Shown here piece after piece: positions 10,101 to 51,996 of a stretch of 64,000 bases of DNA. A program made the translations under genes and the position numbers. Location: contig JABHAL010000007.1 of assembly GCA_018674305.1 (NCBI GenBank), positions 6,976-70,975 on the forward strand, given 5' to 3'. Numbering within the stretch: the first letter of the stretch is position 1; every line of letters starts with the position of its first letter. The stretch comes from Candidatus Falkowbacteria bacterium (GTDB taxonomy: Bacteria > Patescibacteriota > Patescibacteriia > UBA11705 > JABHMO01). The notes beneath the pieces were generated by a model. The model made no database searches, was not told the origin of the DNA, and saw only the letters and a program-made list of their open reading frames with translations.

Positions 10101-13100
10101 AATACAAGCCAGAACTTCCTTCAGTCAAATTACCCAAAGTTCCGTCAGCAATGATAGTCAATGAAGTTGTTGACAAATCACTTTTAGTAATACCAATCGG
10201 TATGTTCTGTGAAGTATATGCGGTATAAGTTGAAGGTGATGTTTCAGTTCCTTCTTCGTTTTTAGCTTTAACACTAACTTCAATCGCTGCATTTGCGGAC
10301 AACCCGCTCTGAACCCAACCATTAGCGGAAACCCAACCACTATTATCTGCCGGTGTAGCAGTACTAGCATAATATGAATTCTGTGCACCGCCACTACTCC
10401 AGCCCCAAGTGATAGAAGCCGTCGTATTAGCACTGTGAGTTAAGCTAGTTGGTGCATCTGCATCAGTATAGGCACTGGCAGGACTTGATCCAATACCAGC
10501 CCCTTGTGCATTGGTAGCACGAACATAAACTGTATATTGAGTATTAGCATCCAATGAACTTAACTGATATTGACTGGTAGCTGAACCAACAGTAGCAAGA
10601 CGAACATCATCCGAAGAACGATAAACATCATAATCAGTTGCCCCGGTTACATCATTCCAATCCCAAGTAATTGAATCTGCATCTGCTGCACTGTTTGTAA
10701 GTCCTGTTGGCTGAGCAGGACCAGTTGTATCCTGACTACTAGCTGCTCCGTCCGCCAAGTTATTATCACCATCCCCATCGTATGAAGATGTTCTAAACTG
10801 ATAACAAGTTCCCGCAGATAGTCCAGTGACCGAATATGGTGAGGTTGCCATCACTGAAGCATTGTTATACAAAACTGTATCATAAGTAGCATCACAACCG
10901 GTATCTTGTGCAATAGCCATACCACTTGGAGTAGGGCTTGGAACACTCCAAGTTAAAGTCATTACATAGTCATCCTTGTCAGTTGCCTCGGCCACCGTGA
11001 AACTGGTAACTGTACTAGCATGAGTATATTCAGTCACAGTTGAACCAAAAGCGGTTTCCGTATTATCTCCATTTCTAGCTTTGACTTTGAAACCATATCG
11101 CGTATTTGAGGTAAGACCTGTCATTGTAACTGTTCCCCAGGCAGACGCTGTTTGATAAGTTTCTGCCGCCTCCAGACTTCCATCACCCTTAAGATATTCT
11201 CCCGACACCGTTTCTTGGATCGCATATTCAGTTGTCGAAGGATTGCCATCGCCAGCAGTAACAGCCACCTGAATTTGAGTAGTTGTAAGGCCAGTAACGG
11301 TTGGCGATGACGGAGCATTAGCAAGAGTATATTTAAAAATTGAAGCCACACTTTGCTCATTACCATAATCATCAACTGCCCAAATATCAAAATAATATTT
11401 TTCATTCACTGATAATCCAGTTATTGTTGTTGTCGTGGTTGTCCGAGTTGCCAAAGCTACATCATCACCATTATCCCATTCAACAGCACCCCCACTTCGT
11501 CCTTCAGCATCAGCTTGGAATATGCTATACCAAATTTCATAATGATTAAAATTAGTTTCAGTTGCTATTGTCCAATCTACAGTCTGGGTAGTTGTAGTAG
11601 ATGAATCCCAGGCGAAAGCAAATAATCCAGTTGGATCAACATTGTCTAAGGTCATTGTCTGATTTGCCGCAGTTCCATCAGATGTATCATCATTAACAGT
11701 AACATTAATACAATTAGTGCCGTTAGCAGAAGCCAAATCAGTATCAGAATCCCAATCAAAACTTACCGAATTAGAGCCTGATGAAGTTATTACCCGAGTC
11801 CGAGTGGTTGCAGTCGCACCTATTTGATAAGCACCACCTGCAATATCCGGAGCGCCACCGCTATCATCAAAATCAGCCGTTGCAGCCGAACCTAATATTG
11901 TAGCCGCTGACCACGGACCATCACAAGCCCCATCACTATCAGATTCATATTGAATTTTTACTTTAGTGTCATCATCATCAGCATCATCCACTTCAATTGA
12001 AATCGTCACATCCCCGGAACCGTCCGTTTTCTGGGTAGCGCTATTCACACTAACAGTAGGATTTGAATTATACGAAATTGTTGCCGAAGAATAATTCAAA
12101 TCCGTCGCCGTAATATCTTGGTAGGAAATCCCCGTTAAAGAACCACTTCTAGCAATACTCACATATTCCCCAGTATTGTCAGTAGTATCAACCGTTTCAA
12201 ATGACCAACTACCATTATTATCACCAAAAACAAGGTCATTTGCTGTCTCGTCATAAAACGCAACTTGAGGAATTGTTCCGTCAAAAAGAAGACTTACCCA
12301 ATCCTGAACCGTATAAGTTCCTGTATGAATCTGCGTACAAGTCCAGCCGGCATTATCACAGCCAGAACCCGCTGACTGATAGGCATAATACAAATCATCT
12401 GAAAGAGGGTAAGCAATACCAACCTTATCGTTACTATCAATATCCATTCCAATATTTTCATGATATATAACTCCGGTAGCAATATCATCAACAGCATAAC
12501 AGGTCCAGTCTGAGTCATTGGCACCTGCGGCGTCACAACTAGCACCACCATCACGTTTTCCATAAATAAGCTTTTTGTCATTAATGTCATTACTAACAAT
12601 ATGTGGGACATTGTTACTATCAAACTTCAAAACATTATCATTACCAATATTATTAGTGGTGTAGACATCTTCACAAGACCAATCAGATGAGGCGCACCCA
12701 CTACCACCACCACCACCAACATACCAGGCATACCGCAGATCAGCAGTATTGCTATATTTATAGAGAATACCAGGATTATTAGAATCATTCAGATCCATAC
12801 TTGGAAAAAGCCCTACTGTATTAGTACTATCAATTGTTGTACAAGCCCAATTATTGTGAGTACAAGTTGATTCAGACCCTGAACCTGTATATATAGCATA
12901 CTCTAAGTCTCCACTATAAAAATTATAAAAAGCAATCCGCGGATTGTCCGAAGTATCAAACTTCAAGGAAACGCCCAACGCCTTAGCCGTATCCACCTGA
13001 ATAGGAGTACCCCAACTACTTCCATTGTAATAAACATAATACAAATCAAAACCTGACCCTCCCGTATTGCGAGCATAAGCAATACCCGGATTACCACTAC

Positions 13101-13260
13101 TATCATAATCCAAAGAAGTATGCCAAAGATTAGTAGTATCAACAGTCGTATTTGTCCAGGAATGTGCCAGAGCAATATAGGAAATCAAAAATATCGGAAC
13201 TAATACTAAGATCCATAGTCCAATAGTTTTACAAATAAAATTTTTGTTTAATCCCTTCAT
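7132..13260 (-). CDS. Giant cell-surface protein paralog (2042 aa)
   Basis: The C-terminal ~700 aa, including the 3' ~2.2 kb of DNA, are nearly identical to 1535..6916. The N-terminus differs and has YVYY/'DSNNPGI' beta-propeller-like repeats and extra FN3 modules. Confidence 0.85.
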   Translation of the reverse strand: MKGLNKNFICKTIGLWILVLVPIFLISYIALAHSWTNTTVDTTNLWHTSLDYDSSGNPGIAYARNTGGSGFDLYYVYYNGSSWGTPIQVDTAKALGVSLKFDTSDNPRIAFYNFYSGDLEYAIYTGSGSESTCTHNNWACTTIDSTNTVGLFPSMDLNDSNNPGILYKYSNTADLRYAWYVGGGGGSGCASSDWSCEDVYTTNNIGNDNVLKFDSNNVPHIVSNDINDKKLIYGKRDGGASCDAAGANDSDWTCYAVDDIATGVIYHENIGMDIDSNDKVGIAYPLSDDLYYAYQSAGSGCDNAGWTCTQIHTGTYTVQDWVSLLFDGTIPQVAFYDETANDLVFGDNNGSWSFETVDTTDNTGEYVSIARSGSLTGISYQDITATDLNYSSATISYNSNPTVSVNSATQKTDGSGDVTISIEVDDADDDDTKVKIQYESDSDGACDGPWSAATILGSAATADFDDSGGAPDIAGGAYQIGATATTRTRVITSSGSNSVSFDWDSDTDLASANGTNCINVTVNDDTSDGTAANQTMTLDNVDPTGLFAFAWDSSTTTTQTVDWTIATETNFNHYEIWYSIFQADAEGRSGGAVEWDNGDDVALATRTTTTTTITGLSVNEKYYFDIWAVDDYGNEQSVASIFKYTLANAPSSPTVTGLTTTQIQVAVTAGDGNPSTTEYAIQETVSGEYLKGDGSLEAAETYQTASAWGTVTMTGLTSNTRYGFKVKARNGDNTETAFGSTVTEYTHASTVTSFTVAEATDKDDYVMTLTWSVPSPTPSGMAIAQDTGCDATYDTVLYNNASVMATSPYSVTGLSAGTCYQFRTSSYDGDGDNNLADGAASSQDTTGPAQPTGLTNSAADADSITWDWNDVTGATDYDVYRSSDDVRLATVGSATSQYQLSSLDANTQYTVYVRATNAQGAGIGSSPASAYTDADAPTSLTHSANTTASITWGWSSGGAQNSYYASTATPADNSGWVSANGWVQSGLSANAAIEVSVKAKNEEGTETSPSTYTAYTSQNIPIGITKSDLSTTSLTIIADGTLGNLTEGSSGLYFTNTTASTNSGWIQTNSWANSSLSANTQYSYTVKARNGDSDETSTTVDSSSTIFYTAQNTPSGISSSNILIDSITLSATGTFDNLTSDSSGLYFENVTAGTNSGWVQTNSWVETGLSESTTYQYRVKTRNGDGVETSFSSGTNVITLGARSGGGGDPAPIPIPIPDPDPEIDPPVLSEPADGMVTNNNKPYVIGSSTEGLMTVDVYVDDIEVHSFVSQPDKNFVWQISDPLADGLHSIKVANEDVYSDIHSILVDTSPPDAPSITLMSIIVGAEVDNKIGADVTISGKIKADTKQILIYLDDTILIDTIVVDSEKWSYSFEDSYYPGEHKVSVKAIDEAKNLSDEPTEESFLLVSSQPPVDEPVDEPVDEPVDEPVDEPVDEPVDEPVDEPVDEPVDEPVDEPVDEPVDEPVDKPVDDPVVPPVIPPIKPVIPPVAPLVVPPVIPEADGGQADDSQPGDDGQPGDNDDQGPGAPVVPLPVVPNAGDDGGVPVVDDWQGPIVKDDIIDVVVGQSHVPDNIKLDPELIEIYEDIDAKNSWDKTEQEIKFEIIYETEKLMDGKVVQSTTKGIAKVISVITRVDVVKAQQEVEKSVKAVVRTTKIVQKATVDNPALEKANETVKTPAAATVTATSVASLATVGATGASGAGVLTYLQFLFTQPLLLLTKKRRKGWGIVYDAASKKPVDLAVVRVYNAETKKLVRTKVTDKAGRYEFILKPGKYYIEVQKKDYKFPCKILDKVTTDGHFEDVYYGEVIEVQERDAVSMPIALDPIKLAQKGEKVMKLFWFKKTQTLFTLIAPVAAIVSFIINPTLKFGLLIVGQVALYFLFSRLAKGDKPKSWGIVRDLENKKTLSRTIVRVFETKFNKLLDTQVTDGKGRYAFLVGNQEYYVTAEKPGYYQKRSEVFNLEKEETGYLTEDFKLRSHKLGKGIEQAQKKDQQVTLRTGLGQQKEKMIQGIKRVIRRDEEKFKGEIKDVDLDQMHEDYYDVDSLK
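8842..9027 (-). repeat. In-frame 12-bp tandem repeat encoding (PVDE)n, about 14 copies
   Basis: actggctcatca units. The repeat is expanded relative to the paralog. Confidence 0.85.
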
Positions 13261-34195: not shown

Positions 34196-35347
34196 CTATA
34201 TTGAAAGATCAGCAATACTTTTTCTCATTGCAGAAAAAGCTTTAGCTACTTCACTGTTGGCATCTCTGGGTTTTCGGTCCCTTGTGCCATTGACACCAAT
34301 TTCACCTTCATACCACCCCAGGAATCCCTTGATAATAGCGGACTCCAAATCAACACCATGCTTGAGCAAGTAGCCTACTGTTCGACAACCACGATAACTG
34401 GGTGAAAACGCCAAATTGCCAGCACGCTCTGCAGTTCGCAAATTACGTGCAACTTCAACAATTTTCAGAGCCTGTGATTCCAAAATGCCGACTTCAGAAG
34501 CCAGCTTTTGAGACTCATAATCCTTAGGCATCTCCCTGACCCGCATCGGTGCAAAGCGATCCTTAAGTGCCGCATCAACACCATGTGTCCCCAGATATTC
34601 ATCACCCATGTTCATAGTGCCCATAAAGTGAATATTCCCTGGCAACACAATTGTGTTACTACCTTCCGCGGTAGGAAAGGTGACCTGACGAGTGTCATCG
34701 AACAAGCCATGCATACTCTCATTAGTCTTGGCATGCACTCGGTTAATTTCATCCAGCACTACCAAAAACTGCGTTGCCAAACCTTCTCTCTCCGCAATCA
34801 TGGCGCGTTCAATGTAATCGTAAAAGCCAGAACGGATAAAAAGACTTGAGCCATTGGCTGCCGCATTGGAGCCAAACAGATCTGTGGTCTTTTTCATGGT
34901 GTAAACATCAACCTTATACGGTTGCTGCCAGCCCAAAGCCTGAGCAATGGCAAAAGGTAAAGTTGTCTTGCCAGTTCCTTTCGGTCCAATCAGCAAAACA
35001 TCAATACCTTCGTTAAGCCAAACCAACAAAGTTTTCAGGTCGAGATTCTCGATCCAAAAATTGCTCAATTCAGCAATACTTTCCCATTTCTTCAACTTTT
35101 GCACTTTGGCAACCAATTGCACAATAGCGATTTTTTGACGCCCTTTACCAGGCCGCCTTTCAACCAGTTCAACCTGCCAGACATCGCCATTTTCAATCTT
35201 GATTCCACTTGGCGGATGGTTCACTTGAACCAGGGTACTTCGCATATCTTCATCTACGAATTTCCAACCCAAGACACCACTGGCATCAAATTTTGCTCTC
35301 ACTTTCAGGATATCAGCCATTTTTACCTCTCTTTTTGTAATGTTCAA
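34196..35347 (-). CDS. MoxR-like AAA+ ATPase (AAA_5 family)
   Basis: Walker A 'LLIGPKGTGKTTL' and Walker B 'FLVVLDEINRV'. Confidence 0.8.
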   Translation of the reverse strand: MNITKREVKMADILKVRAKFDASGVLGWKFVDEDMRSTLVQVNHPPSGIKIENGDVWQVELVERRPGKGRQKIAIVQLVAKVQKLKKWESIAELSNFWIENLDLKTLLVWLNEGIDVLLIGPKGTGKTTLPFAIAQALGWQQPYKVDVYTMKKTTDLFGSNAAANGSSLFIRSGFYDYIERAMIAEREGLATQFLVVLDEINRVHAKTNESMHGLFDDTRQVTFPTAEGSNTIVLPGNIHFMGTMNMGDEYLGTHGVDAALKDRFAPMRVREMPKDYESQKLASEVGILESQALKIVEVARNLRTAERAGNLAFSPSYRGCRTVGYLLKHGVDLESAIIKGFLGWYEGEIGVNGTRDRKPRDANSEVAKAFSAMRKSIADLSI

Positions 35348-35397: not shown

Positions 35398-37634
35398 GCT
35401 GGAAGTGTTACACTTCCAGCTAAGTTAGTTTGCTAAGGACCTGTAGGACCGTAACAGTTTCGCTACGAAATGAGATTTGCTCATTGTCATTCGTAACGAC
35501 TTTTCGTTACGAATGCGTAGCGACAACAGTTACGGTGCCGTAGCGTGAACCGCATGAGTCCCGAAGGGCGGGGAACGCTACGAGGACTAGCAATAATATA
35601 CTTAAACGCAAACCTTGTATTGATACAATACAAGTAAAGCTTTTGCCAAAGCTTCAAACAAACTAACTTCTAATCTCTAAATCCAATCCTTTAGCTTCAG
35701 AGATTAAAGGGGAAATGGTTCACTTCCCCTGAATCAGTTTGCTATGGCTGTTGTAGGCTTGTGAAAAACTTGCTGTCAAGAATGCAGCAAGAATTGCAGC
35801 AGGGTTGCAGCAAATTTGTCACAAGGCCGTCACGGGAACTTCCCACCGGAGTGACCGTGAGGAACCCTGGCAACACCAAATTAAACCTTAACCTTACATT
35901 GCTACAATGCAAGCAAAGGACAAAGTCCTCCAACAAACTGATTTTCAACCTTTAAATCCAAATCCTTAGATTCAAAGGTTAAAGGGGAAATGATTCACTT
36001 CCCCAAAGCTGTTTTGTTTGCATAAGGTTGCTTCTGTTTGTGACGCAAGCCGTAGGCGGGGTCACAAACCGAACCCCAGTTGCGATGCGCGACTGGGTGA
36101 GAGCACTGGCTAAACCTTAAGGGTTGTTGTCTCACTGACTTTGATAACAAAATCAACTATAACGACAACTCACTACAAGTAGTGACAACAACAAACCAAA
36201 CTACAGCTCACCTGAACAATTAAATATCAAGTTTAACTACTCAGGTAAGCCGGGGAAATGATTCACTTCCCCGGAGCTGTTTTGTTTGCATATGGTTGCC
36301 GGAGTCTGTGACACCTAAAGCGAAGTGTAGTGTCACAGATCAGGCTAGCCCCACGCCCTCAGGGGAATACGTGGGGCTGGACTGGGTACTGGCGCAACCT
36401 TATGATCGTTGTCTCACTAACTTTGCAAGTCAAAGATAGTTAAAACGACAACTCACTATAAATAGTGACAATTAACCAAACTACAGCTCACCTGAATAAT
36501 TAAAATCAATTTAACTACTCAGGTAAGCCGGGGAAATGATTCACTTCCCCGGAGCTGTTTTGTTTGCATATGGTTGCCGGAGTCTGTGACATCTAAAACG
36601 CAGTGTAGTGTCACAGATCAGTTTAGCCTCACGCCCTTTAGGGGAAACGTGGGGCTAAACTGGGGAACTGGCGCAACCTTACGATCGTTGTCTTACTAAC
36701 TTTGCTAATCAAAGCTAGTTAAAACGACAACTCACTATAAATAGTGACGATTAACCAAACTACAGCTCACTTGAATACTTTAATATAAAACACTCAAGTG
36801 AACTGGGGAATGTTGCATTCCCCATGTGCTAGTTTGCTATGGTTAATGATCCAGTCTCAGTAAAGATTTCACAGAAAACTTTCTGAGACTGGCCAGTGCA
36901 GGGGTTCCATTAACAGGCGAAGCCCGGGAGCCCAAGCTGGTAGTGGTTGGCAACTACCTATAAAAATGCCTATCTTATTTTGCTACAAAATAAGTTTTAG
37001 CAGACTTTTGCTAAAGCCCAACCAACAAACTAACTTCAACTAAAAAGCTCAAACAGATTGAACACTTTAGTTGAAGGAGGAATGCTGCATTCCTCCTAAT
37101 AAAAGTACAAATTTGCTATGGCACGAAAAGCAACGCGACATTTTGACCTTGCTTCTAAGCGAAGCGCAACAGAGAAAGGTCAAAATATAGTTCGCCATCA
37201 ACCAGGGATCGTTATCCAAACCAATCTTGATTCAAGACTGGCAGTCTACCATGATATTTACACGATTGGGTAGAATCTATAACAATCAAACAAATCTGCC
37301 AACCACTAATTTCAAATTAATTAAAAGCATTGGTTGACTGGAGAATGCTGCATTCTCCAGTAGGGGCGCTCCCCAAAAAGCTAGTTTCATTGGTTGTGAT
37401 GTTATCAGGATTTCGAAGAAATCCGGATAACTTGTGACGTTGAGGGTCGGTGGTGTTAACCAGAAAACCCGAAGCGTCAAAAAACACTGGCTGGAGCTAT
37501 CCAACCCTACAAACTTGTTTTGAATTCAAAACAAGTACGACCCGTGAAAAAGGTCAAACAAACTAGCTTTCAACTTGTAAACTTTAACTCAAAGCTACAA
37601 TTCACAAGTTGAAGGGAAACTCTAGGAGTTTCCC
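35398..37634. repeat. Tandem array of nine ~260-280-bp non-coding structured repeat units
   Basis: Unit-initial GC hairpins at 35398-35420, 35709-35729, 35984-36004, 36250-36274, 36528-36552, 36805-36823, 37076-37096, 37338-37360 and 37614-37634. Each is followed after 7-17 nt by a G/ATTTGC(T)A(W)GG motif (absent from truncated unit 9). Each unit ends with a long-range inverted repeat. Hairpin stems differ between units by paired compensatory substitutions. Units 4 and 5 are about 90% identical. Confidence 0.85.
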
Positions 37635-37654: not shown

Positions 37655-39208
37655 CTACTTCAATGCCATATGCGCCAAACTGTGAGCACTGGTATTCAAT
37701 TCACGTGGCACATGGTGAAAACGCACTGTACCAATTTCCTTAACAAGTGCCTTCACCTGTGCAACCAGGGTTCGCAAATGAGGCTTACTCACTGCAAACT
37801 TGCCGTTAAGCTGATTCACAACCAGCATACTGTCGGTAAAGCAGTCCAACTCAGCAATGCCAAGTTCTTTAGCTGCCGTCAAACCAACAATTATTGCTTG
37901 ATATTCAGCCTGATTACTTGTCGCCTTCCCAATCAGCTGGGAAATAGTTGATACTTCAGTTCGATCCTTAATCAAAACTGCACCGATACCAGCCTGGTAA
38001 GACTTCCTGGCCGCACCGTCAACAAACAATAGATTGTCACCAAGCAACTGAGAAGAAACATCACCTTGGCCGTCAATCACTACCATGCTCAACTGCTTTG
38101 CCAAATCCTGCAAACCACTCGGCAACAAGGCGTTGTCCAAATATTGCAATGACTTCGCAACCTTGCCAGCATGCAAACGATCTTCAATCTTGCCAACCAG
38201 AACGCGCAGTTTGGATGGTAGCTTCTCCGGATACAACTGACGAACCGCACCCAATGTGCCATTCACCTTACCCAGAATGTGCTCATCCCAAACTTCGATT
38301 TTGAGCCAGTTGTTAAAAGCAGCTCGTAACTGATTCACTTTCCGCGGCGCCATGGTCAAACGACCATCAGGACAAATCACGATCCCAGTTACAATCGGAA
38401 CTTCACCGGTTTCAGGACTGTAGTACTTAGTTTTGTCAGGCCGAGTGTGAGGAATAAAGCCATGCTCCTTGATTAGCGCAAGGATCTTGGCCCTCATTTC
38501 CTCTGGGATCTCTTTGTCAGAAGATACCGTAATGTCATCAAACCAAGAAGTCATGTTAAAACCCTGCAAAGGGCTTGAACTTTCGTGCAGATAACTGAAT
38601 ATAGCTGTGTCCATTTTGTAACACACAATACCCAGAATACGCGGTGAAGTTGGTGGGCCTTGCGGAAGTCGATCATGCAAACAAAGCAAATCAACTACTG
38701 CCTCCAGCATGTTCTTCACGTCATCTTCCAACCAAGTAACATCACCAAACTGTCGGAGCATGAATCGAAATGGTTTTTGCAAACACTTACGAATTCGACT
38801 GCGAAGAACTGTAGGATAAGCATTAATAATATCAACGCCAAACGCAACCTTGTTACCCATGTGCGCAGCCGCATGCTCCACGATCCCAGTTCCACCCTGG
38901 CAACCATAACGAGAAAAATGGATCGGAATCTGATCCAAAAACTGCGCCTTGATTGATCGTTGTACAGTCTTCAACTCAGCACAGGGCGCTGCAAAATAGC
39001 GATAACCCTTGCCACGACCCTTGAACTTACGCCACTCTCGGTATGCCTTTCCCTGACGAATCTTGTCCAAAGCAAAGTTCCAGCTAGCCTTATCCAGCTT
39101 AAAAAGCAGACGCAAATACTGTGCCAAACGCTCGGACAACACCAGGATGGTGCCAAAGTCCGTGTACTCGTCCAGAGGATTGACCTTTTTCTTCTTTTCC
39201 GTTGGCAT
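37655..39208 (-). CDS. Reverse transcriptase fused to a C-terminal RNase H (archaeal type 1 / RVT_3-like) domain
   Basis: RT motifs 'RYFAAPCAELKTVQRSI', 'GVDIINAYPTV', 'LPQGPPTSPRILGIVCY' and 'WFDDITVSS' (YxDD-type). RNase H motifs 'VDGAA..GIGAVL', 'SNQAEYQAII', 'CFTDSMLVV' and 'HHVPRELNTSAHSLA'. RBS AGGAGG. TTGACA -35 on the minus strand at 39282-39277. Confidence 0.85.
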   Translation of the reverse strand: MPTEKKKKVNPLDEYTDFGTILVLSERLAQYLRLLFKLDKASWNFALDKIRQGKAYREWRKFKGRGKGYRYFAAPCAELKTVQRSIKAQFLDQIPIHFSRYGCQGGTGIVEHAAAHMGNKVAFGVDIINAYPTVLRSRIRKCLQKPFRFMLRQFGDVTWLEDDVKNMLEAVVDLLCLHDRLPQGPPTSPRILGIVCYKMDTAIFSYLHESSSPLQGFNMTSWFDDITVSSDKEIPEEMRAKILALIKEHGFIPHTRPDKTKYYSPETGEVPIVTGIVICPDGRLTMAPRKVNQLRAAFNNWLKIEVWDEHILGKVNGTLGAVRQLYPEKLPSKLRVLVGKIEDRLHAGKVAKSLQYLDNALLPSGLQDLAKQLSMVVIDGQGDVSSQLLGDNLLFVDGAARKSYQAGIGAVLIKDRTEVSTISQLIGKATSNQAEYQAIIVGLTAAKELGIAELDCFTDSMLVVNQLNGKFAVSKPHLRTLVAQVKALVKEIGTVRFHHVPRELNTSAHSLAHMALK

Positions 39209-43469: not shown

Positions 43470-43632
43470 GACATCCTCCTGTAAAATGAACCTAGTCTAA
43501 ATTAAAAGCATTCTTTTAATCATTTTCTAATCCTAGCATTTACTATAATTTTTGTCAACCTTATACACTTCTCAGGCCTCAACTTATCTGGTAAAATAAT
43601 TATGACAATGAAACTCATCTCATGCTTGTTGT

Positions 43633-44466
43633 ATGGCTACTCAATATGATGAACAATTCCGAGCAGCGGTTCTCAAAATAATGAATGAAGGGTTTGATGA
43701 ATACAATGAAAGAACCGGCCACACCTGTAAAGTTTTACCAGGTGTGACTTTTGAATTAGACACAGGGTTCCCTTTGCTAACCTTGAGAAAAATCCCAATA
43801 AAACTATTCGTGGCTGAGCAAATTTGGTATATTATGGGTAGTAGAAACCCCGATGACTTTGTTAATAAATTCACAGGAATTTGGAAAGATTTCACAGAAG
43901 AAGATGGCACCATTCCTGCAGCTTATGGTCACCGCTGGAGAAGCGCCTTTGGGAGAGATCAATTAGGCCTACTAGTTAAACATTTACAAGAAAATCCCGG
44001 CTCACGCCATGGAGTAGTCATTACCTGGGATCCACGTGAAGATGGTCTCGGTAATCCAGAATCAAAAAAGAACGTCCCCTGCCCTTACACTTGGACGGCT
44101 AACATTATAGGAAACAAACTACATATTCATTCTGTAATTAGATCAAACGACATGATGCTCGGCTGTCCACACGATGTGGCAGGTTTTTATTTATTACTTT
44201 GTGTCGTGGCTGCGAAACTTGGAGTTAAACCAGGAAAATTGACCCATACAATTTCCAATGCCCACATTTATGACATTCACTTTCAACATGCCTGGGAATT
44301 GGTGGAAAGAAATAATGATCACCCACCCCTTCAGTTTGAATCTCAAGCAGATCATTATGACCGAGCCGAAGCTGGTGATGAATCTTTGGTTCAAGAAATT
44401 GTAGACCAATTACAAAAAAATTATAATCCACTTGGTCCAATAAAAGGAATGAAGATAGTGTTATAA
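43633..44466 (+). CDS. Thymidylate synthase family pyrimidine C5-(hydroxy)methylase; Asp replaces the dUMP-specificity Asn
   Basis: Gap-free alignment to E. coli ThyA. 'VPCPY' aligns with PCH (catalytic Cys). 'RSNDMMLGCPHD' aligns with 'RSCDVFLGLPFN', so N177 becomes D. E58 and Y94 equivalents are present. Confidence 0.8.
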   Translation: MATQYDEQFRAAVLKIMNEGFDEYNERTGHTCKVLPGVTFELDTGFPLLTLRKIPIKLFVAEQIWYIMGSRNPDDFVNKFTGIWKDFTEEDGTIPAAYGHRWRSAFGRDQLGLLVKHLQENPGSRHGVVITWDPREDGLGNPESKKNVPCPYTWTANIIGNKLHIHSVIRSNDMMLGCPHDVAGFYLLLCVVAAKLGVKPGKLTHTISNAHIYDIHFQHAWELVERNNDHPPLQFESQADHYDRAEAGDESLVQEIVDQLQKNYNPLGPIKGMKIVL

Positions 44467-44592
44467 AATTATCAATTTTTCAATTTTCATTAAATTATAA
44501 ATTATCAGTTTTCAAATTATTCACACGACACGATAATTGAAAATTAGATCATTGAGAATTTATTGCAAATTGGAAATTACAAATTGAAAATT

Positions 44593-45105
44593 ATGAAAAA
44601 CACCCTCATGATGGTAATCACAACAGACGGTTTTATTGCCAAAAATGCTGGCCAGCCGTCAATCGAATGGACGTCAAATGCGGACAAAGAACTTTTTGTT
44701 GAAAAAACTAAGCAAGCTGGCGTAATCATAATGGGCAATTCAACTTACAAAACTATCAACAGACCGTTACCCGGTCGATTAATTAAAGTTTTAACGCGAA
44801 TTCCTGAGCAATTTACAAACATTGAAGGACAAATTGAATATACAAACAAACAACCACAAGAACTTCTAAAAGAACTTGAAGACAAAGGATTTACTGAAGC
44901 AATCCTGGCCGGCGGAACACAGGTCAATTCCCTATTTTTAGATCAAGGGTTAGTTGACGAATTGCTAATCACTATTGAACCAATTTTATTCGGTGGTGGA
45001 TTAAATCTATTCAAGGATTTAAATTTGAACATTAAACTTGAACTTCTAGAATATAAGGATTTGGGAAGTAATGTAATTAATTTAAAATATAAAATAATAA
45101 AATAA
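44593..45105 (+). CDS. Dihydrofolate reductase-like (RibD C-terminal / DHFR family)
   Basis: 'MMVITTDGFIA' and 'ILAGGTQVNSLFLDQGLVDELLITIEPILFGGG'. Confidence 0.65.
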   Translation: MKNTLMMVITTDGFIAKNAGQPSIEWTSNADKELFVEKTKQAGVIIMGNSTYKTINRPLPGRLIKVLTRIPEQFTNIEGQIEYTNKQPQELLKELEDKGFTEAILAGGTQVNSLFLDQGLVDELLITIEPILFGGGLNLFKDLNLNIKLELLEYKDLGSNVINLKYKIIK

Positions 45106-45134
45106 GCGAGGGGTAATTATTCTAACAAAACAAT

Positions 45135-45860
45135 ATGTCTACTCTAACTAAAAAAGAAATCCTACAAAGAATCCAAGAAGGAAAAATTACTTTCGCTCCA
45201 GAACTAGATGAATTTCAACTATCACCGAACTCAATTGATCTTCGTGTTGGCTGGAGTTTTTATATTCCTCACAGTTGGAAAATGAATTCAAAAGGTCGAG
45301 TAGCTGTTATTGCTGATTACCTGGACTACCAGAACATGGAAGAATATTTTAAGTTAATTAAACTTAGCCCAGGTCAATGCTTTGAAATTCTTCCGAAGGA
45401 ATTCATCTTGATTTCTACCTTAGAAAAAATAACCTTAAACTGTGGGGACATTGCTGGAACACTAATGCCCAGAAGTTCCGCGCTAAGAAGGGGCCTACAA
45501 ATTGAAACTGGAATGATTGATTGTCGTTATAGTGGCCAATTAACTATTCCCGTGGTTAACAACTCTCATCATATTATAAAATTGTATCCAGGAGAAAGAA
45601 TTTGCCAGGTACAACTATACAAACTAGAGAGTGATTTATCAAAAGAGGATGCAAAGAAACACGGCAAACAAGATGCTAAATATGCCGGTTCAACGCCCTA
45701 CTCTCTAGAATCCAAGGCTGACAACACTGAAGAAATTGAACAAATTAAACAAGGTAACCTAATAGAGCTCAAGCAAAAAAATAATTTGAAGACGTTGGCA
45801 GAAACGTCGCAACAGCTACCCAAAACTAATCAAGGAAATACTAATGCTCAGCAACTATAA
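45135..45860 (+). CDS. dCTP deaminase / dUTPase-superfamily protein with a long C-terminal tail
   Basis: 'SPNSIDLRVG' and 'RSSALRRGLQIETGMIDCRYSGQLTIPVVN' Dcd-like motifs. Confidence 0.65.
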   Translation: MSTLTKKEILQRIQEGKITFAPELDEFQLSPNSIDLRVGWSFYIPHSWKMNSKGRVAVIADYLDYQNMEEYFKLIKLSPGQCFEILPKEFILISTLEKITLNCGDIAGTLMPRSSALRRGLQIETGMIDCRYSGQLTIPVVNNSHHIIKLYPGERICQVQLYKLESDLSKEDAKKHGKQDAKYAGSTPYSLESKADNTEEIEQIKQGNLIELKQKNNLKTLAETSQQLPKTNQGNTNAQQL

Positions 45861-46317
45861 ATCACTAAAGGCATATCCATATATGCCGCCTGGATGTGAA
45901 ATTGTGTACGTCAAAGACGATAATCCTTTTATCCAGGCGGCGAAAAAAGTCGCTCTAGAATCTGGCTGTGTTAAACAATCAACTGGAGCTGTGATTGTAA
46001 TTGACAATCAAATAGTTGCCCAAGGCTCTAATGCAGGCCTGCGAGTTGAAGTTTGCCCACGAGTAGTTGAGAAATGCGCCACTGGGAAAGGTTATCATCA
46101 CTGCAAAGAGACTTGCAAACAAGATGGCCATGCCGAAGAACAAACAGCCAAGGATTTTCAAAGGAAAGCCTTAAGTTCTGAAGGTGCTGAAATGTTTCTT
46201 TGGGGTCATTGGTGGTGTTGTGAACCTTGCTGGGATTGGATAAAGAAAATTGGTTTAACAAAAGTTCATTTACTCGAAGGTGCCACTGAGATGTTTGACC
46301 TTGATGCCTCAAAATAA
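45844..46317 (+). CDS. dCMP / cytidine deaminase family zinc enzyme
   Basis: 'HAEEQ' and 'CCEPC' zinc-binding motifs (HAE...PCxxC). Confidence 0.7.
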   Translation: MLSNYKSLKAYPYMPPGCEIVYVKDDNPFIQAAKKVALESGCVKQSTGAVIVIDNQIVAQGSNAGLRVEVCPRVVEKCATGKGYHHCKETCKQDGHAEEQTAKDFQRKALSSEGAEMFLWGHWWCCEPCWDWIKKIGLTKVHLLEGATEMFDLDASK

Positions 46318-46359
46318 GGGCAAAAACTGCCCTTTTTATTTTACATAACACATATTAAT

Positions 46360-46917
46360 ATGAAAAAATTAATTATTGGATTTGTCGGTGAAATTGCTAG
46401 TGGCAAGGGCGAAGCTAGCGACTACATAACCAAAAAACACCAAACCGGTTATTTTCGTTTCTCTACAATTATCAGGGAAGTTCTCAAACGACTTCATCTA
46501 GAAGAATCACGAGAAACAATGCAAAGAATCTCTCTTGTTCTTCGAGAAAATTTTGGCCAGGACCTATTTGCAAAAGTAATAGCAAAAGATGCAGAAAATG
46601 ATCCACATCAAATTGTTTGCGTAGACGGAATTCGAAGAACTCCCGACATAAAATATCTCCGAGAGCTCCCCAATTTTCATTTAATTAATATCCAAACTGA
46701 AGAAAAAATTCGATTTGAAAGAATCATCAGGCGTGCAGAAAACCCTGACGATAAAAACAAAACTTTTCAGGAATTTCAAAAAGATCAGCAAGGAGAAACT
46801 GAACTAACCATTCGCGAAGTTGCCAAGCAAGCTAATTTCATTGTAAATAACAATGGAACATTCGAAGAATTGTACTCTCAGCTTGACGACTTGATTACCA
46901 AATTAAATACAGGCTAA
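46360..46917 (+). CDS. P-loop deoxynucleoside-monophosphate kinase, T4 gp1-like
   Basis: N-terminal 'MKKLIIGFVGEIASGKGEASDYI' and C-terminal 'IVNNNGTFEELYSQLDDLI' resemble T4 gp1 ('MKLIFLSGVKRSGKDTTADFI' ... 'VITNDGSLEELFSKIKNTL'). Confidence 0.55.
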   Translation: MKKLIIGFVGEIASGKGEASDYITKKHQTGYFRFSTIIREVLKRLHLEESRETMQRISLVLRENFGQDLFAKVIAKDAENDPHQIVCVDGIRRTPDIKYLRELPNFHLINIQTEEKIRFERIIRRAENPDDKNKTFQEFQKDQQGETELTIREVAKQANFIVNNNGTFEELYSQLDDLITKLNTG

Positions 46918-46943
46918 AAAAATGATTAATAAAATATAAAAAT

Positions 46944-47483
46944 ATGATTTTAGGAGTTGACGAACTTCATCGTCTAGTTAAAGAACAAAATCTAGTAGAA
47001 AATCTTTGTGATCGAGAATTAAATAATCCAGAGGGTTGTGGATTTGATCTTCGACTTGGTGCTGTATACGAAATTCAAGGTCAAGGCTATCTAGGTATTG
47101 AACAAAGAAAAACCCCAACCGAAAAGTTATTAGCTGAATATGACCCAACCAACAAACAATCATTCATTTTTGAACCTGGTAAATATTATTTAATGAAAAC
47201 AATTGAACGTATCAACACCCCAGACAATCTGGCGGTTCTTTTTCGCCCTAGAACAACTATCTTTCGCTCCGGAATGATGATATTCACAGGAAACGTTGCT
47301 CCAGGTTACAAAGGTGAATTAATTTTTGGAATCACAAACATGGGAAATAACCCAATCAACATTGAATTGGGCGCTCGCGTAGTTCATGCCTTATTTATTG
47401 AAGTCAAAGGTTCAACTAACTTATACAGGGGCCAATGGCAGAACGGTCGAGTTAGCGCCAACCAACTTGAAACTCAAGTTTGA
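46944..47483 (+). CDS. Second dCTP deaminase / dUTPase-superfamily protein
   Basis: 'GNVAPGYKGELIFGITNMGNNPINIELGARVVHALF' Dcd/dUTPase motif. Confidence 0.65.
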   Translation: MILGVDELHRLVKEQNLVENLCDRELNNPEGCGFDLRLGAVYEIQGQGYLGIEQRKTPTEKLLAEYDPTNKQSFIFEPGKYYLMKTIERINTPDNLAVLFRPRTTIFRSGMMIFTGNVAPGYKGELIFGITNMGNNPINIELGARVVHALFIEVKGSTNLYRGQWQNGRVSANQLETQV

Positions 47484-47486
47484 CAT

Positions 47487-48434
47487 ATGAATATTCAGAC
47501 CAAAAATCTCACCGCCAGTCTTATTCAGCTAACTGCTGAGAATATTTCGTTTTATGCTTTTCAACTTATAGTTGGTAATTGTTTAACCAGCAAATATAAG
47601 TTTACCAATGAATATATTCAACCACGAAAAACAGTCGAAGAATATGTAAACTTAATAAATGATTTTAAAAAACTAAACTTCAAGGGACACTTCCCTACTT
47701 TTGCCAGTTTAGTAAATGCTGAATTTATTCTAAACCAATCACAACTAAAAACTGTTCTTCACAAATCACTTAATCAAAACAAACCAGAATTGACACAACT
47801 TGCAGAACAATTAACATCTGATTCAATTACAACAACAACTACAGAAAATTTTGAGTCCCTTGAATATTCAAGTCAAGAAAAAAATTGCCCCTCTATCAGG
47901 ATTTTAGACATCGACAAGTCATTCAAAAACAAACTCTTGTTTTATTATCTATTTTTCAGAAACAGCAACCCAATATCAGAACTGATGGACAAAGCTGAAC
48001 TAATGACCATGGAAACTCAAGAACAAATTATCAAAAACATTTTCAACGCCGGTATTCAAGCTTCACTACCTTCGACCATAAGTAAATACCCATTTTGTAC
48101 TACTCAATTAGCGGTTCCTTTCTCAGAATATTTACCAATTTTTAATATTATCCAACCATCAGTTTGTTTTCAACCTTTTTCCACCAGACATGGCTTTTCG
48201 ACACCAGAGGAAGCTCCCAAATCAGAGCAACATGAACTATTATTAACTACCATGCAAAAAGCTAAAGATAATTTCGAAAAAAACAAGGACCCATATATCA
48301 TTCCACTCAACTTCAAGCAAAGCGCCAATCTAACTATAAACCTACTCCAATACGAAAAGTTAAAAAAATCTAATCAACCAATAAGTCAATCAATCATAAA
48401 AGAAATAAAAAATAATTTTAATTTTTTACCATAA
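47487..48434 (+). CDS. Hypothetical protein (315 aa) within the nucleotide-metabolism cluster
   Basis: ORF tightly packed between Dcd-like and tmk. Confidence 0.45.
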   Translation: MNIQTKNLTASLIQLTAENISFYAFQLIVGNCLTSKYKFTNEYIQPRKTVEEYVNLINDFKKLNFKGHFPTFASLVNAEFILNQSQLKTVLHKSLNQNKPELTQLAEQLTSDSITTTTTENFESLEYSSQEKNCPSIRILDIDKSFKNKLLFYYLFFRNSNPISELMDKAELMTMETQEQIIKNIFNAGIQASLPSTISKYPFCTTQLAVPFSEYLPIFNIIQPSVCFQPFSTRHGFSTPEEAPKSEQHELLLTTMQKAKDNFEKNKDPYIIPLNFKQSANLTINLLQYEKLKKSNQPISQSIIKEIKNNFNFLP

Positions 48435-48463
48435 GCAATAATTATATGATGGAGGATCAAATC

Positions 48464-49090
48464 ATGGGACAATTCATTGTTTTTGAAGGCGGTGAAGGGA
48501 CTGGGAAAACCACCCAAATTCAACGACTAGAAAACCGATTCAAGAAACACGGTCATAACGTTTTTTTGACTCGTGAACCAGGTGGCACAGAATGTGTTCT
48601 GGCTGAAAAAATCAGAACCCTATTAAAAGATCCGGCCCACACGGAAATGGTGCCGGAAGCTGAATTATTTTTATTTTTGGCTTCACGTGCACAACACGTT
48701 CGTCAAGTTATTCTCCCTCATATAAAACGAGGGGAAATTGTTATTTCTGACCGTTTTCATGGTTCCACATTTGCCTATCAACATTTCGGACGTGGCCTGT
48801 TTAACTTAGAAGAAGTAAAAAAGATTAATCAATTTGCCACTGGTGGCCTTGAGCCACATTTAACAATTTTATTAGACATCGACCCTCATGCTGGAATTGG
48901 GAGGATTGGTGATAGAAGAGATGGTGATCGACTGGACAGTGAAAGCATGGGTTTTCACCAAAAAGTTCGTACTGGTTTTTTAACTCTAGCGGAAACTCGC
49001 GCAGACTGGGCAGTAGTTAATGCAGACAATAACATTGAAGCTATTCATGATGATATTTGGCGACATATAGTTCACAAACTAGAATTATAA
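48464..49090 (+). CDS. tmk: Thymidylate kinase
   Basis: 'FIVFEGGEGTGKTTQ', 'LTREPGGT' and 'DRF'. SD GGAGGA lies 7 nt upstream of the ATG at 48464. Confidence 0.85.
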   Translation: MGQFIVFEGGEGTGKTTQIQRLENRFKKHGHNVFLTREPGGTECVLAEKIRTLLKDPAHTEMVPEAELFLFLASRAQHVRQVILPHIKRGEIVISDRFHGSTFAYQHFGRGLFNLEEVKKINQFATGGLEPHLTILLDIDPHAGIGRIGDRRDGDRLDSESMGFHQKVRTGFLTLAETRADWAVVNADNNIEAIHDDIWRHIVHKLEL

Positions 49091-49102
49091 TGGAGGTTAT
49101 TA

Positions 49103-49732
49103 ATGTTTAGACGAGGTTGTATTGACGTAATTGTTAGTTGTATGCGTGGAGGAAAAAGTGAACTTGCTCTTCATTGGATAAACCAAGAAAGCTATGGTAA
49201 AGGCAGAAAATACTTAATATTTCAACCTGATATTGCTGACCGAGAAGTGTGCTTGACTAATGGTGAAAAAATTGAGACCAAAGGTAGAGCTGTAAGTCGT
49301 TGTGGAACAATTTCTCATGAAAATGCAATTATTTTTCCTAAAAATGATCCTTGGAAAATCCTGGAATTCATTACTCCGGACATCACCACTGTTCTGATTG
49401 AAGAAGGCCATTTTTGTCACACTGACTTAGTTAAAGTTTGTAAAATTCTGGCTGAAAAGCATCTAATTCGAGTAATTGTTACTGGATTAGATCAAACTTT
49501 CCTAGAAGAACCTTTTGGTCCTATGCCCCACCTTTTATGTGAAGCTGACCATGTGAGAAAACTAAGTGCTGTATGCATGCACTGTGGTGAAGCTCCAGCA
49601 ACTAAAAGCTGGTTACATCCGACTTACAGAGAAAAAGTTCTTTCTGGATCAATTCATGTTGGTGATGAAGACTATCTTTCTGTTTGTCGACATTGCTTCC
49701 GCGAACTTGAAGCTAATCCACCGAAACCTTAA
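49103..49732 (+). CDS. tdk: Thymidine kinase (TK1 family)
   Basis: P-loop 'CMRGGKSE' and C-terminal zinc ribbon 'CMHCGE...CRHCF'. Confidence 0.7.
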   Translation: MFRRGCIDVIVSCMRGGKSELALHWINQESYGKGRKYLIFQPDIADREVCLTNGEKIETKGRAVSRCGTISHENAIIFPKNDPWKILEFITPDITTVLIEEGHFCHTDLVKVCKILAEKHLIRVIVTGLDQTFLEEPFGPMPHLLCEADHVRKLSAVCMHCGEAPATKSWLHPTYREKVLSGSIHVGDEDYLSVCRHCFRELEANPPKP

Positions 49733-51387: not shown

Positions 51388-51426
51388 AGAGCGGACCTCA
51401 CGTGAGAAGTCCGCTCTTTGGTTTTA
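51388..51426. terminator. Bidirectional terminator GAGCGGAC..GTCCGCTC
   Basis: Flanked by an A-run and a T-run. It sits between the convergent gatB and the Cys-rich gene. Confidence 0.6.
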
Positions 51427-51996
51427 CCACTCGTAGCAGTAGTGATCCGTCGCGCAGAAGAAACCACCTGGGCAATCGTAATCACTCCAGCAAACTTCTT
51501 CTTCGTAGCAGTGTCCGTCTACGTCACAATAGTACCCAGCTACACAATCATAGTCTGAATAACAACCGTCCTCGTAGTCGTAACAACTACCATCATCTGC
51601 GCAATAGGAATTCGTTGGACAATCGTAATCATCCCAGCAACCGTAGTCCGAACTTGAATACCCCGACTCATGACAGTAGCCGTACATATCACAGTACGTA
51701 CCGTACGGACATTCGTCACTTGTGTAACAAGCGAATTCCACTGCTTCATAGCAGTAACCATCGGTGGCACAGTATGTATCGTACATACAATCACTGTCTG
51801 AGTAGCAATAGTCAGAAACCACAACGACCGAAGCACTCGGAGAAGAATAGGCATAGCAATATCCATCACTAGCACAATATTCATCCGAATAGCAGTCATA
51901 ATCATCCCAACAAGCTGGATAGCAATCAATGCAATCAAGAACGCACCCAGACATCAAAATTACCACAATCACAAAGATAAACAAATATCTCATCAC
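51424..51996 (-). CDS. Repetitive Cys/Tyr/Asp-rich secreted lipoprotein
   Basis: Signal peptide plus lipobox 'LMSGC'. It has about seven repeats of 'DYDC....YC..DG.CY' and about 30 Cys in 190 aa. Confidence 0.55.
   Translation of the reverse strand: MMRYLFIFVIVVILMSGCVLDCIDCYPACWDDYDCYSDEYCASDGYCYAYSSPSASVVVVSDYCYSDSDCMYDTYCATDGYCYEAVEFACYTSDECPYGTYCDMYGYCHESGYSSSDYGCWDDYDCPTNSYCADDGSCYDYEDGCYSDYDCVAGYYCDVDGHCYEEEVCWSDYDCPGGFFCATDHYCYEW

Follow-up and report, generated by a model that had tools for sequence, protein, structure and literature searches.

A thymidylate synthase homolog of Patescibacteria predicted to methylate dCMP, and a probable dUMP-independent route to thymidylate

Introduction

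Cells have two textbook solutions to de novo thymidylate synthesis, ThyA and ThyX, both of which methylate deoxyuridine monophosphate (dUMP). To our knowledge, the chemistry in which deoxycytidine monophosphate (dCMP) is methylated first and deaminated afterwards is documented for a few phages only. Whether a cell might also use it is the question raised by a 64,000-nucleotide stretch of a Candidatus Falkowbacteria contig (JABHAL010000007.1; hereafter the window), from a member of the Patescibacteria or candidate phyla radiation (CPR). Positions 43633-49732 of the window hold nine deoxypyrimidine genes, all on the + strand and separated by intergenic gaps of -17 to 96 nt. The first encodes a thymidylate synthase (TS) homolog with Asp at the position of Asn177 in E. 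coli ThyA, and is followed, in this order, by genes for dihydrofolate reductase (DHFR), a Dcd-like protein (DCD1), a zinc deaminase, a P-loop kinase, a second Dcd-like protein (DCD2), a 315-aa open reading frame (ORF), thymidylate kinase (Tmk) and thymidine kinase (Tdk). An earlier note, made from the letters alone, had taken the cluster for a T4-like module that would make 5-hydroxymethyl- or 5-methyl-dCMP, raise it to the triphosphate and deplete dCTP, in the service of a hypermodified genome or of an anti-phage or anti-restriction nucleotide pool, with a redundant ordinary dTTP pathway as the fallback; structural comparison with T4 dCMP hydroxymethylase (gp42) and ThyA and a phylogeny of the TS homolog were proposed as checks. 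The residues, conservation and gene context described below point elsewhere, namely to a probable housekeeping route to thymidylate in CPR bacteria that would run from dCTP through dCMP and 5-methyl-dCMP to a thymidine nucleotide, independently of dUMP. The four genes that matter most for this proposal are the following.

43633-44466, + strand: TS-family protein of 277 aa, predicted dCMP C5-methyltransferase (PF00303, E 3.5e-48)
44563-45105, + strand: dihydrofolate reductase, 180 aa from TTG, with a likely start at ATG 44593 (PF00186, PF01872)
45135-45860, + strand: DCD1, Dcd-family protein of 241 aa (TIGR02274, 101 bits, above cut-off)
45844-46317, + strand: divergent zinc deaminase of the dCMP deaminase family, 157 aa (His96, Glu98, Cys126, Cys129; 'GHWWCCxxCW')

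Residues of the thymidylate synthase homolog

All eight NCBIfam ThyA equivalog models score the TS homolog below their cut-offs, TIGR03284 coming nearest (103.9 versus 108.35 bits). In HMMER alignments to solved thymidylate synthases, RSNDMMLGCPHD falls on RSADIFLGVPFN without a gap, and a MAFFT alignment with E. coli ThyA places Asp181 (GAT, 44173-44175) at Asn177, Cys150 (44080-44082) at Cys146, Glu62 at Glu58 and Tyr98 at Tyr94. These alignments bear out what the earlier note had read from the letters, a gap-free exchange of Asn for Asp with the catalytic Cys and Glu58 retained. Arg170 and Asp173, aligned with Arg166 and Asp169 of the E. coli enzyme, complete the TS catalytic set, all of which is kept apart from positions 177 and 147 (E. 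coli numbering); the latter is occupied by Pro151 in place of His147, and the Asn177 and His147 pair of canonical ThyA is missing. Two further residues, His211 and Tyr213, whose part in TS is to bind the 3'-OH of deoxyribose, are retained, and the C-terminal TS tail is present (...PIKGMKIVL). An AlphaFold (AF2) model of the protein has a predicted local distance difference test (pLDDT) score of 89 and a predicted template-modelling (pTM) score of 0.90. In the proposed structural comparison, the top 50 Foldseek matches of this model were thymidylate synthases only, with template-modelling (TM) scores of 0.78-0.82 to solved TSs; the best score (TMq 0.82) was to 1NJC, the L. casei N229D variant with bound dCMP, and T4 dCMP hydroxymethylase was not among these 50 matches.

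Positions 177 and 147 are those that best separate cytosine-modifying from canonical TSs in MetaGPA, a metagenome screen tying genes to modified-cytosine DNA (PMC8670742). With the substitution N177D, E. coli TS takes dCMP as its substrate in place of dUMP, and L. casei TS does so with N229D (Hardy & Nalivaika 1992; Liu & Santi 1992, as cited in PMC8670742), so that in these engineered enzymes one change of Asn to Asp gives dCMP methylation on a normal TS scaffold, whereas the natural CPR protein carries the further co-varying changes W83F, R127H, L143N and H147P. It is almost certain that the TS homolog has a cytosine nucleotide as its substrate and a C5-modified dCMP as its product.

The residues also bear on the nature of the modification. 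The signature of dCMP hydroxymethylases consists of an acidic residue three positions before the Cys (Asp145 in T4), Ser or Thr two positions before the catalytic Tyr and the loss of the C-terminal tail, and 5-hydroxy-dCMP synthases carry D169N (PMC6400193, PMC13326640). The TS homolog has none of these features: Asn147 stands in 'KNVPCP' (E. coli position 143), 'PAAYG' lacks Ser or Thr, the tail is in place and Asp173 (E. coli 169) is kept. Production of 5-methyl-dC has been demonstrated experimentally for the enzyme of phage Xp12 and for five of seven metagenomic Asp-type TSs, and all C is replaced by 5-methylcytosine (5mC) in Xp12 and PaMx74 (bioRxiv 10.1101/2024.12.05.627091). In a six-way alignment the TS homolog has the same residues as the enzymes of Xp12, Mallos and RDJL at six positions, with Phe at 83, Ala at 93, Asn at 143, Pro at 147 and Asp at both 169 and 177, and the insertion 'DPxEDGLG...KNVPCP' is common to all four. 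BLASTP scores from the TS homolog fall from 166 bits (RDJL), 154 (Mallos) and 146 (Xp12) to 92.8 for E. coli ThyA and 53.5 for T4 gp42, with 37-39% identity to the Xp12-type dCMP methylases versus 25% to gp42. Its closest phage relatives (36-39% identity) are the TSs of Xanthomonas phage Mallos, of the roseophages RDJL Phi 1 and Phi 2 and of their kin, and the Mallos TS is in turn 64% identical to those of Xp12 and PaMx74. Because the hydroxymethylase signature is missing and the protein is nearer to the Xp12-type enzymes than to gp42, its predicted product is 5-methyl-dCMP and not 5-hydroxymethyl-dCMP; of the two products named in the earlier note, the methylated one is thus retained and the hydroxymethylated one given up. 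We predict that the TS homolog is an Xp12-type dCMP C5-methyltransferase, neither a T4-type hydroxymethylase nor a canonical ThyA.

Conservation and phylogeny

The nearest TS homologs all bear names of Patescibacteria/CPR (Kuenenbacteria, Falkowbacteria, Uhrbacteria, Parcubacteria). Asp occupies position 177 in all 120 of the closest homologs (64-99% identity) and in each of the 82 TSs from loci of GTDB species-representative genomes, mostly Patescibacteria of many classes together with two Chloroflexota. Since it is kept in both of these sets and in the deaminase-adjacent TSs of metagenomes described below, the residue is not a matter of chance or sequencing error. A search of 1.84 billion cluster representatives at 50% identity returned 12,388 matches. 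Among the best 150, which were inspected, 127 have Asp at 177; every site-covering representative with E <= 1e-30 is Asp-type, and Asn-type sequences appear only from about 123 bits downward. In the same 150 representatives Asp co-varies with W83F, R127Q/H/R and H147P/V/I/L, and the changes that accompany it in the TS homolog (W83F, R127H, L143N, H147P) are common to more than 100 Asp-type representatives. The proposed phylogeny, a neighbour-joining tree of 141 sequences, recovered the CPR TS proteins as monophyletic in 100/100 bootstraps and, in 74/100 replicates, put the TS homolog and Xp12 into one clade that contained neither Asn-type sequences nor gp42.

A housekeeping operon in a cellular chromosome

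The window is part of a cellular Patescibacteria chromosome, as housekeeping genes are found throughout its 64 kb. The cluster has nusG-rplK-rplA upstream and gatB downstream, and the window further holds rplT, rpmE, prfA, prmC, a sigma factor gene, ftsW, gyrB, miaA, mraY, murD, iscS-nifU and prs. Housekeeping neighbours of this kind are present at 47 of the 82 Asp-type TS loci, and no close relative of the TS homolog was found in the viral contigs of IMG/VR; a phage, prophage or mis-binned origin is rejected on these grounds. The operon is a housekeeping unit kept at the nusG-rplK-rplA locus across many Patescibacteria lineages and not a phage-like or defence island, which does not agree with the anti-phage or anti-restriction strategy envisaged in the earlier note.

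Neighbours of the Asp-type TS in the 82 loci include the deaminase (72 loci), DHFR (60), DCD1 (43), Tmk (37), the kinase (24), DCD2 (4) and the 315-aa ORF (4). Fusion and domain-variant proteins occur at loci L166, L024, L007, L018, L031, L012, L015, L047, L026 and L028. Fusions join the deaminase with an Asp-type TS (P0136), a MazG-like PRA-PH protein, an NTP pyrophosphatase, with an Asp-type TS (P0166), DCD1 with the deaminase (L166), the kinase with Tmk (L024) and, in related loci, Tmk with Tdk; they thus link steps of the pathway proposed below.

One metagenome locus (L162, contig Ga0265316_10007526) has an operon of Asp-type TS, DCD1 and deaminase followed by a canonical dUTPase, an Asn-type thyA and DHFR_1. 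This thyA (8642-9592), the only Asn-type TS among 162 loci, is broken by an in-frame TAA at 9104-9106. The break fits the idea that canonical thyA is dispensable beside the Asp-type route, an idea to be treated with care in view of a single case from a metagenome assembly; the gene could equally be a decaying acquisition or the break an assembly error. Motif scans for ThyX and DNA C5-methyltransferases, confined to the 64-kb window and a total of about 1 Mb of sequence flanking the 82 loci, gave nothing convincing.

The partner deaminase

No neighbouring gene is linked to the Asp-type TS as tightly as that of the deaminase, which is found beside the TS in both co-directional and divergent arrangements. 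The link also holds in the reciprocal direction. A search for the deaminase motif in JGI metagenomes gave 559 relatives, and among the best 80 loci, which were examined, a TS was present in 27 of the 27 that extend at least 2.5 kb on both sides; the TSs of these 80 loci comprised 51 of Asp type, 9 too truncated to call and one of Asn type. A profile of 46 deaminase orthologs matches the dCMP deaminases 2HVV (2.7e-10) and 4P9C (3.5e-10), T4 cd (1VQ2) and human DCTD (2W4L), and 45 of the 46 match PF00383. The HxE/CxxC zinc site is invariant among the orthologs, and the 'GHWWCCxxCW' motif is unusual. In some lineages the protein has a C-terminal domain resembling nucleoside 2-deoxyribosyltransferase/dNMP hydrolase (PF05014-like, about 29 bits, at the Pfam cut-off).

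From this pairing we infer that the protein is a deaminase of 5-methyl-dC nucleotides. Vertebrate DCTD, likewise an enzyme of the dCMP deaminase family, deaminates 5-methyl-dCMP to dTMP; it differs from the scheme proposed here in that it sanitises salvaged nucleotides, no dedicated dCMP methylase feeding biosynthesis. Among phages, 70% of the deaminases on modified contigs adjoin a TS, as against 6% of those on unmodified ones (bioRxiv 10.1101/2024.12.05.627091), and the pairing of deaminase and TS in CPR mirrors that of the modified contigs. The module of Xp12 and PaMx74 in particular has the same TS sub-type and the same trio of neighbours (TS homolog, PF00383 deaminase, DHFR) as the CPR operon, with the same proposed logic, thymine nucleotides from a deaminated 5-methylcytosine nucleotide. 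In contrast to the phage module, which belongs to lytic phages, that of CPR is a conserved housekeeping operon of a cellular chromosome, its deaminase represents another PF00383 sub-family ('GHWWCC'), its candidate NTP pyrophosphatase has the Dcd fold where that of the phages has a HAD or MazG fold, and Tmk, Tdk and an extra kinase are encoded in addition.

A Dcd-like protein without the catalytic glutamate

DCD1 has Pro139 (45549-45551) at the position of the catalytic Glu of dCTP deaminases (E. coli Glu138, 'ITLE'), with Asp129 kept; in the alignment with M. tuberculosis Dcd, 'tipvvn' falls on 'itlelsn'. The exchange of Glu for Pro recurs in 40 of the 43 operon orthologs and in metagenome loci, again with the neighbouring Asp kept. 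Because the catalytic Glu is replaced, DCD1 is predicted to be incapable of deamination and would most simply be a dNTP pyrophosphatase acting on dCTP to give dCMP, that is, a bifunctional Dcd-Dut without its deaminase half. The earlier note had described two proteins of the dCTP deaminase/dUTPase fold; the fold stands for both, and the dCTP deaminase Glu is gone from both DCD1 and DCD2. Its parallel with the T4 dCTPase gp56 did not hold. No similarity of the Dcd-like proteins to gp56 could be detected, and neither is retained as a gp56-like dCTPase; gp56 belongs to the all-alpha MazG-like superfamily and not to the trimeric dUTPase fold. The DHFR encoded between the TS homolog and DCD1 has Thermotoga maritima 1CZ3 as its best solved relative (E 1e-23).

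A methylate-then-deaminate route to thymidylate

In the route that we consider probable, DCD1, which keeps the pyrophosphatase scaffold and has Pro for the deaminase Glu, would hydrolyse dCTP to dCMP and pyrophosphate. Methylene-tetrahydrofolate would then serve the TS homolog as donor in the C5 methylation of dCMP, with 5-methyl-dCMP and dihydrofolate as the products, a step suggested by the residues of the protein (Asp181, Pro151, the tail) and by homology to the tested Xp12 enzyme. The adjacent DHFR, clear in its family, would regenerate tetrahydrofolate. The deaminase would turn the 5-methylcytosine nucleotide into a thymine nucleotide, either at the level of the monophosphate (5-methyl-dCMP to dTMP) or, alternatively, after the kinase and Ndk had raised 5-methyl-dCMP to the triphosphate (5-methyl-dCTP to dTTP, as by the phage enzyme mSCD-B5). 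Tmk would make dTDP, with Tdk adding salvage, and the kinase, DCD2 and the 315-aa ORF would be accessory. As a consequence dUMP would be bypassed and the chemical steps from C to T taken in the reverse of the textbook order. That the operon would serve thymidylate supply in this way, by methylation followed by deamination, is suggested by the near-obligate pairing of the TS homolog with deaminase, DHFR and Tmk. While the family assignments, residue states, conservation, synteny and fusions are observed, each substrate and product named here is deduced from sequence.

Several points weigh against this route. The gene set (deaminase, dUTPase-fold protein, TS, DHFR, Tmk) equals what canonical synthesis needs, so that the case for the inverted order depends chiefly on two things, the residues of the TS homolog and the missing Glu of DCD1. 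The grouping of the TS homolog with Xp12 is moderate, and its 74/100 drop to 58/100 when the signature columns are left out. Selectivity of PF00383 deaminases for 5mC is polyphyletic and unreadable from sequence; mSCD-B5, the one characterised partner deaminase, acts on triphosphates only. The CPR deaminase shares with the 5mC-selective deaminase (mSCD) class only its genomic pairing with an Asp-type TS. No specific kinship between the CPR and Xp12 deaminases was found with hhalign (probability 5%), and BLAST detected no similarity between the CPR and Mallos deaminases. The substrate of DCD1 may be dCTP, dUTP or 5-methyl-dCTP, and the roles of the kinase and DCD2 are left unexplained.

Alternative readings

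The overlap with the textbook pathway is also the starting point of the alternative that survives best, in which the protein is a divergent conventional TS acting on dUMP, the deaminase and the dUTPase-fold proteins supply dUMP, and Asp is a tolerated quirk of the lineage. Canonical dTMP synthesis (Dcd/Dut or dCMP deaminase, ThyA, FolA, Tmk) employs the same families, cofactor cycle and end product, and thyA and folA are adjacent there too; public annotation names the protein thymidylate synthase, its catalytic TS residues depart at 177 and 147 alone, and a CPR folA can stand in for the deleted folA of E. coli (PMC11974145). The operon departs from that pathway in the changes of Asn177 to Asp and His147 to Pro, in a Dcd homolog without the catalytic Glu and in a deamination that would follow methylation. 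An ordinary enzyme is hard to reconcile with the substrate switch of the N177D and N229D mutants, as cited in PMC8670742, with the action of all characterised natural Asp-type enzymes of the examined literature on a cytosine nucleotide, with the whole derived residue set common to the TS homolog and the validated dCMP methylases, with the failure of every NCBIfam ThyA equivalog cut-off and with a co-operonic Dcd-like protein that, with Pro for Glu, should not deaminate. We regard this reading, the fallback of the earlier note, as unlikely and as weaker than the methylate-then-deaminate route.

A second alternative accepts the predicted methylase and takes the parallel with Xp12 further. The operon would make 5-methyl-dCTP for replication, with 5mC replacing part or all of the cytosine; in detail, DCD1 would remove dCTP, the kinase would phosphorylate 5-methyl-dCMP and the deaminase would divert part of it to dTTP. 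Each phage function has a counterpart here (dCMP methylase, DHFR, deaminase, NTP-pyrophosphatase candidate, extra kinase), a deaminase confined to triphosphates, as is mSCD-B5, would require a pool of 5-methyl-dCTP, and Xp12 and PaMx74, which have the same trio of TS, deaminase and DHFR, replace C by 5mC completely (bioRxiv 10.1101/2024.12.05.627091). On the other side, many CPR lineages have conserved the operon as a housekeeping unit, and for these lineages the literature search found no report of unusual DNA; the kinase and DCD1 are present in only 24 and 43 of the 82 loci, and the co-operonic Tmk and the dNMP-binding-type (PF05014-like) domain of some deaminases fit a monophosphate route. 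We know of no cellular organism with wholesale pre-replicative base substitution. It is doubtful that a large part of the Patescibacteria radiation would make 5-methyl-dCTP before replication and carry 5mC in place of much or all of its chromosomal cytosine; if it did, chromosome-wide 5mC could let these nucleotide-scavenging episymbionts distinguish their own DNA from that of the host. The hypermodified genome of the earlier note is kept at the same low standing, the pairing with deaminase, DHFR and Tmk pointing instead to thymidylate supply.

A T4-like pathway, in which 5-hydroxymethyl-dCMP would be made for hypermodified DNA or pool manipulation, appears very improbable. The operon resembles the gp42/gp1/gp56/cd/td/frd pathway in being a deoxypyrimidine gene cluster with Asp at the specificity position; the TS homolog and gp42 have both Asp177 and the 'RSND' motif in common, and the kinase, faintly gp1-like at its termini, gives a gp1-type signal with PHROG 139. 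The signature speaks against it: position 143 is Asn as in Xp12 and not Asp or Glu, position 83 is a bulky Phe and not Val, the residue two places ahead of the catalytic Tyr is neither Ser nor Thr, and the C-terminal tail is present. A hydroxymethylase releases tetrahydrofolate and has no need of DHFR, yet in CPR a DHFR adjoins the Asp-type enzyme itself, to which it would be coupled, in 60 of the 82 loci. Of the TS references gp42 is the most distant (53.5 bits, versus 146-166 for the Xp12-type enzymes), and it is missing from the top 50 structural matches. The window has no gp56 homolog and no second, td-type TS, and no DNA glycosyltransferase was found among its ORFs scanned against Pfam. 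A gp42-like hydroxymethylase is thus rejected on signature residues, tail, sequence distance and DHFR coupling, and with it the T4-like module from which the earlier note had started.

Least likely of all is a role outside DNA, in which the modified cytosine nucleotide would serve a secondary metabolite (as with MilA and BcmA) or anti-phage nucleotide depletion: Asp-bearing TS homologs do act in mildiomycin synthesis (PMC5175136), and both domains of the anti-phage dCTP deaminase have weak counterparts here in the kinase and the deaminase (NF041025; PADLOC 'dCTPase', 51 bits for the kinase-like domain and 20.5 for the deaminase), but Tmk, Tdk and DHFR lie in a ribosomal-protein neighbourhood conserved across classes, biosynthetic or defence partner genes are not present, and His211 and Tyr213 for the deoxyribose 3'-OH are kept. 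The PADLOC matches are weak and in a gene order reverse to that of the fused defence protein, and a defence system is rejected.

Prior knowledge and implications

In a full-text literature search, neither an Asp-type TS nor a route through dCMP methylation was found described for any cellular organism, CPR bacteria included, and CPR papers treat the gene as ordinary thyA. The enzymology is familiar from phages; its conserved housekeeping use in cells, the other deaminase sub-family and the Dcd without Glu appear not to have been reported before. If the methylate-then-deaminate route is correct, one of the major radiations of bacteria makes thymidylate by a third route that does without dUMP, and thousands of CPR annotations as "thymidylate synthase" and "dCTP deaminase" need correction. 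CPR metabolic models would change, including published ideas on thyA, folA and folate exchange, and why uracil intermediates are avoided would become a question. The enzymes would offer a cellular source of dCMP methylases and possibly of 5mC-selective deaminases for methylation sequencing, and pre-replicative 5mC in a cellular genome would become a directly testable hypothesis. Because CPR cells pass fine filters, CPR contigs might moreover add to the "modified-cytosine" signals of viral-fraction screens.

Other genes and signals of the operon

The remaining features of the cluster are listed here.

43569-43597, + strand: candidate promoter-like site ahead of the TS gene (9/12 hexamer positions matched in a consensus scan, extended TG; consensus match only)
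46316-46334, + strand: terminator-like hairpin directly 3' of the deaminase stop (7-bp stem with 4 GC pairs, T-rich tail; consensus match only)
46360-46917, + strand: P-loop nucleotide kinase, UPF0200/AdkA-like, 185 aa (PHROG 139 'dNMP kinase', 1.7e-17, full length)
46944-47483, + strand: DCD2, protein of the dUTPase/Dcd fold, 179 aa, operon accessory (active-site Asp replaced by Ala119, Glu by Gly129)
47487-48434, + strand: orphan ORF of 315 aa, a lineage-specific insertion (4 of 82 loci)
48446-49090, + strand: thymidylate kinase Tmk, 214 aa (TIGR00041, 178.9 bits, above cut-off)
49103-49732, + strand: thymidine kinase Tdk, 209 aa (PF00265, 1.7e-24)

Together with DHFR and the deaminase, the kinase, the 315-aa ORF, Tmk and Tdk are present as the earlier note had described them (Pfam, NCBIfam, PHROG). 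The hairpin behind the deaminase gene is followed by a candidate promoter-like site at 46340-46369, again a consensus match only, and this succession hints that TS, DHFR, DCD1 and deaminase may form a core transcription unit apart from the kinase genes.

The best solved relative of the kinase is the archaeal UPF0200 protein SSO1041 (1e-12, PDB). The likeness to T4 gp1 at both termini that had been noted earlier is confined, in BLASTP, to two short stretches at the ends (E 0.05 and 0.002), and Pfam DNMK (PF21448) is matched at E 9e-4 by the N-terminus only, below the cut-off. The kinase and deaminase are separate genes, in the reverse order of the corresponding domains of the fused anti-phage dCTP deaminase; a pair of housekeeping genes of this kind may have given rise to the latter, or the latter to the pair.

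DCD2 belongs to a family (1244 matches) that is widespread and well conserved in CPR. All 120 homologs listed among these matches lack both active-site acids, Asp being replaced by Ser or Ala (118) or by Pro or Leu (one each) and Glu by Gly, Ser or Ala. On Portnoybacteria-type contigs (L092-L095) DCD2 occupies the same nusG-rplK...gatB slot beside a 258-aa archaeal-like TS homolog of Asn type, serine hydroxymethyltransferase (SHMT) and FolD, a set from which both DHFR and the deaminase are missing. Since this set takes the same slot, CPR lineages hold alternative thymidylate modules at one locus.

For the 315-aa ORF no match was found in Pfam, NCBIfam, PHROG or PADLOC, and 5.8 billion proteins contained three homologs; its AF2 model (pLDDT 43.6) is unusable.

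Side observations in the window

Outside the operon, about five tandem units of 275-280 nt are found at 35600-36900, each with the hairpin GGGGAAATGATTCACTTCCCC, inside a 2.2-kb stretch without an ORF of at least 70 aa. The array is flanked by an AAA_5 ATPase gene (34196-35347, - strand) and a reverse-transcriptase/RNase H gene (37655-39208, - strand), the latter with Pfam RVT_1 and RVT_3 and a PADLOC match to RT_VI (109.6 bits). The region 35600-36900 has no match in Rfam, and may be a reverse-transcriptase-associated array of non-coding RNA. At 51424-51996 (- strand) an ORF of 190 aa without a Pfam match encodes Cys/Tyr/Asp-rich repeats (CYSDxDC...DGYCY) and is overlapped by ORFs on both strands. 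Finally, two adjacent genes at 1535-6916 and 7132-13260 (both - strand) encode giant proteins, 1793 and 2042 aa long, that contain fibronectin type III repeats and are presumably surface proteins.

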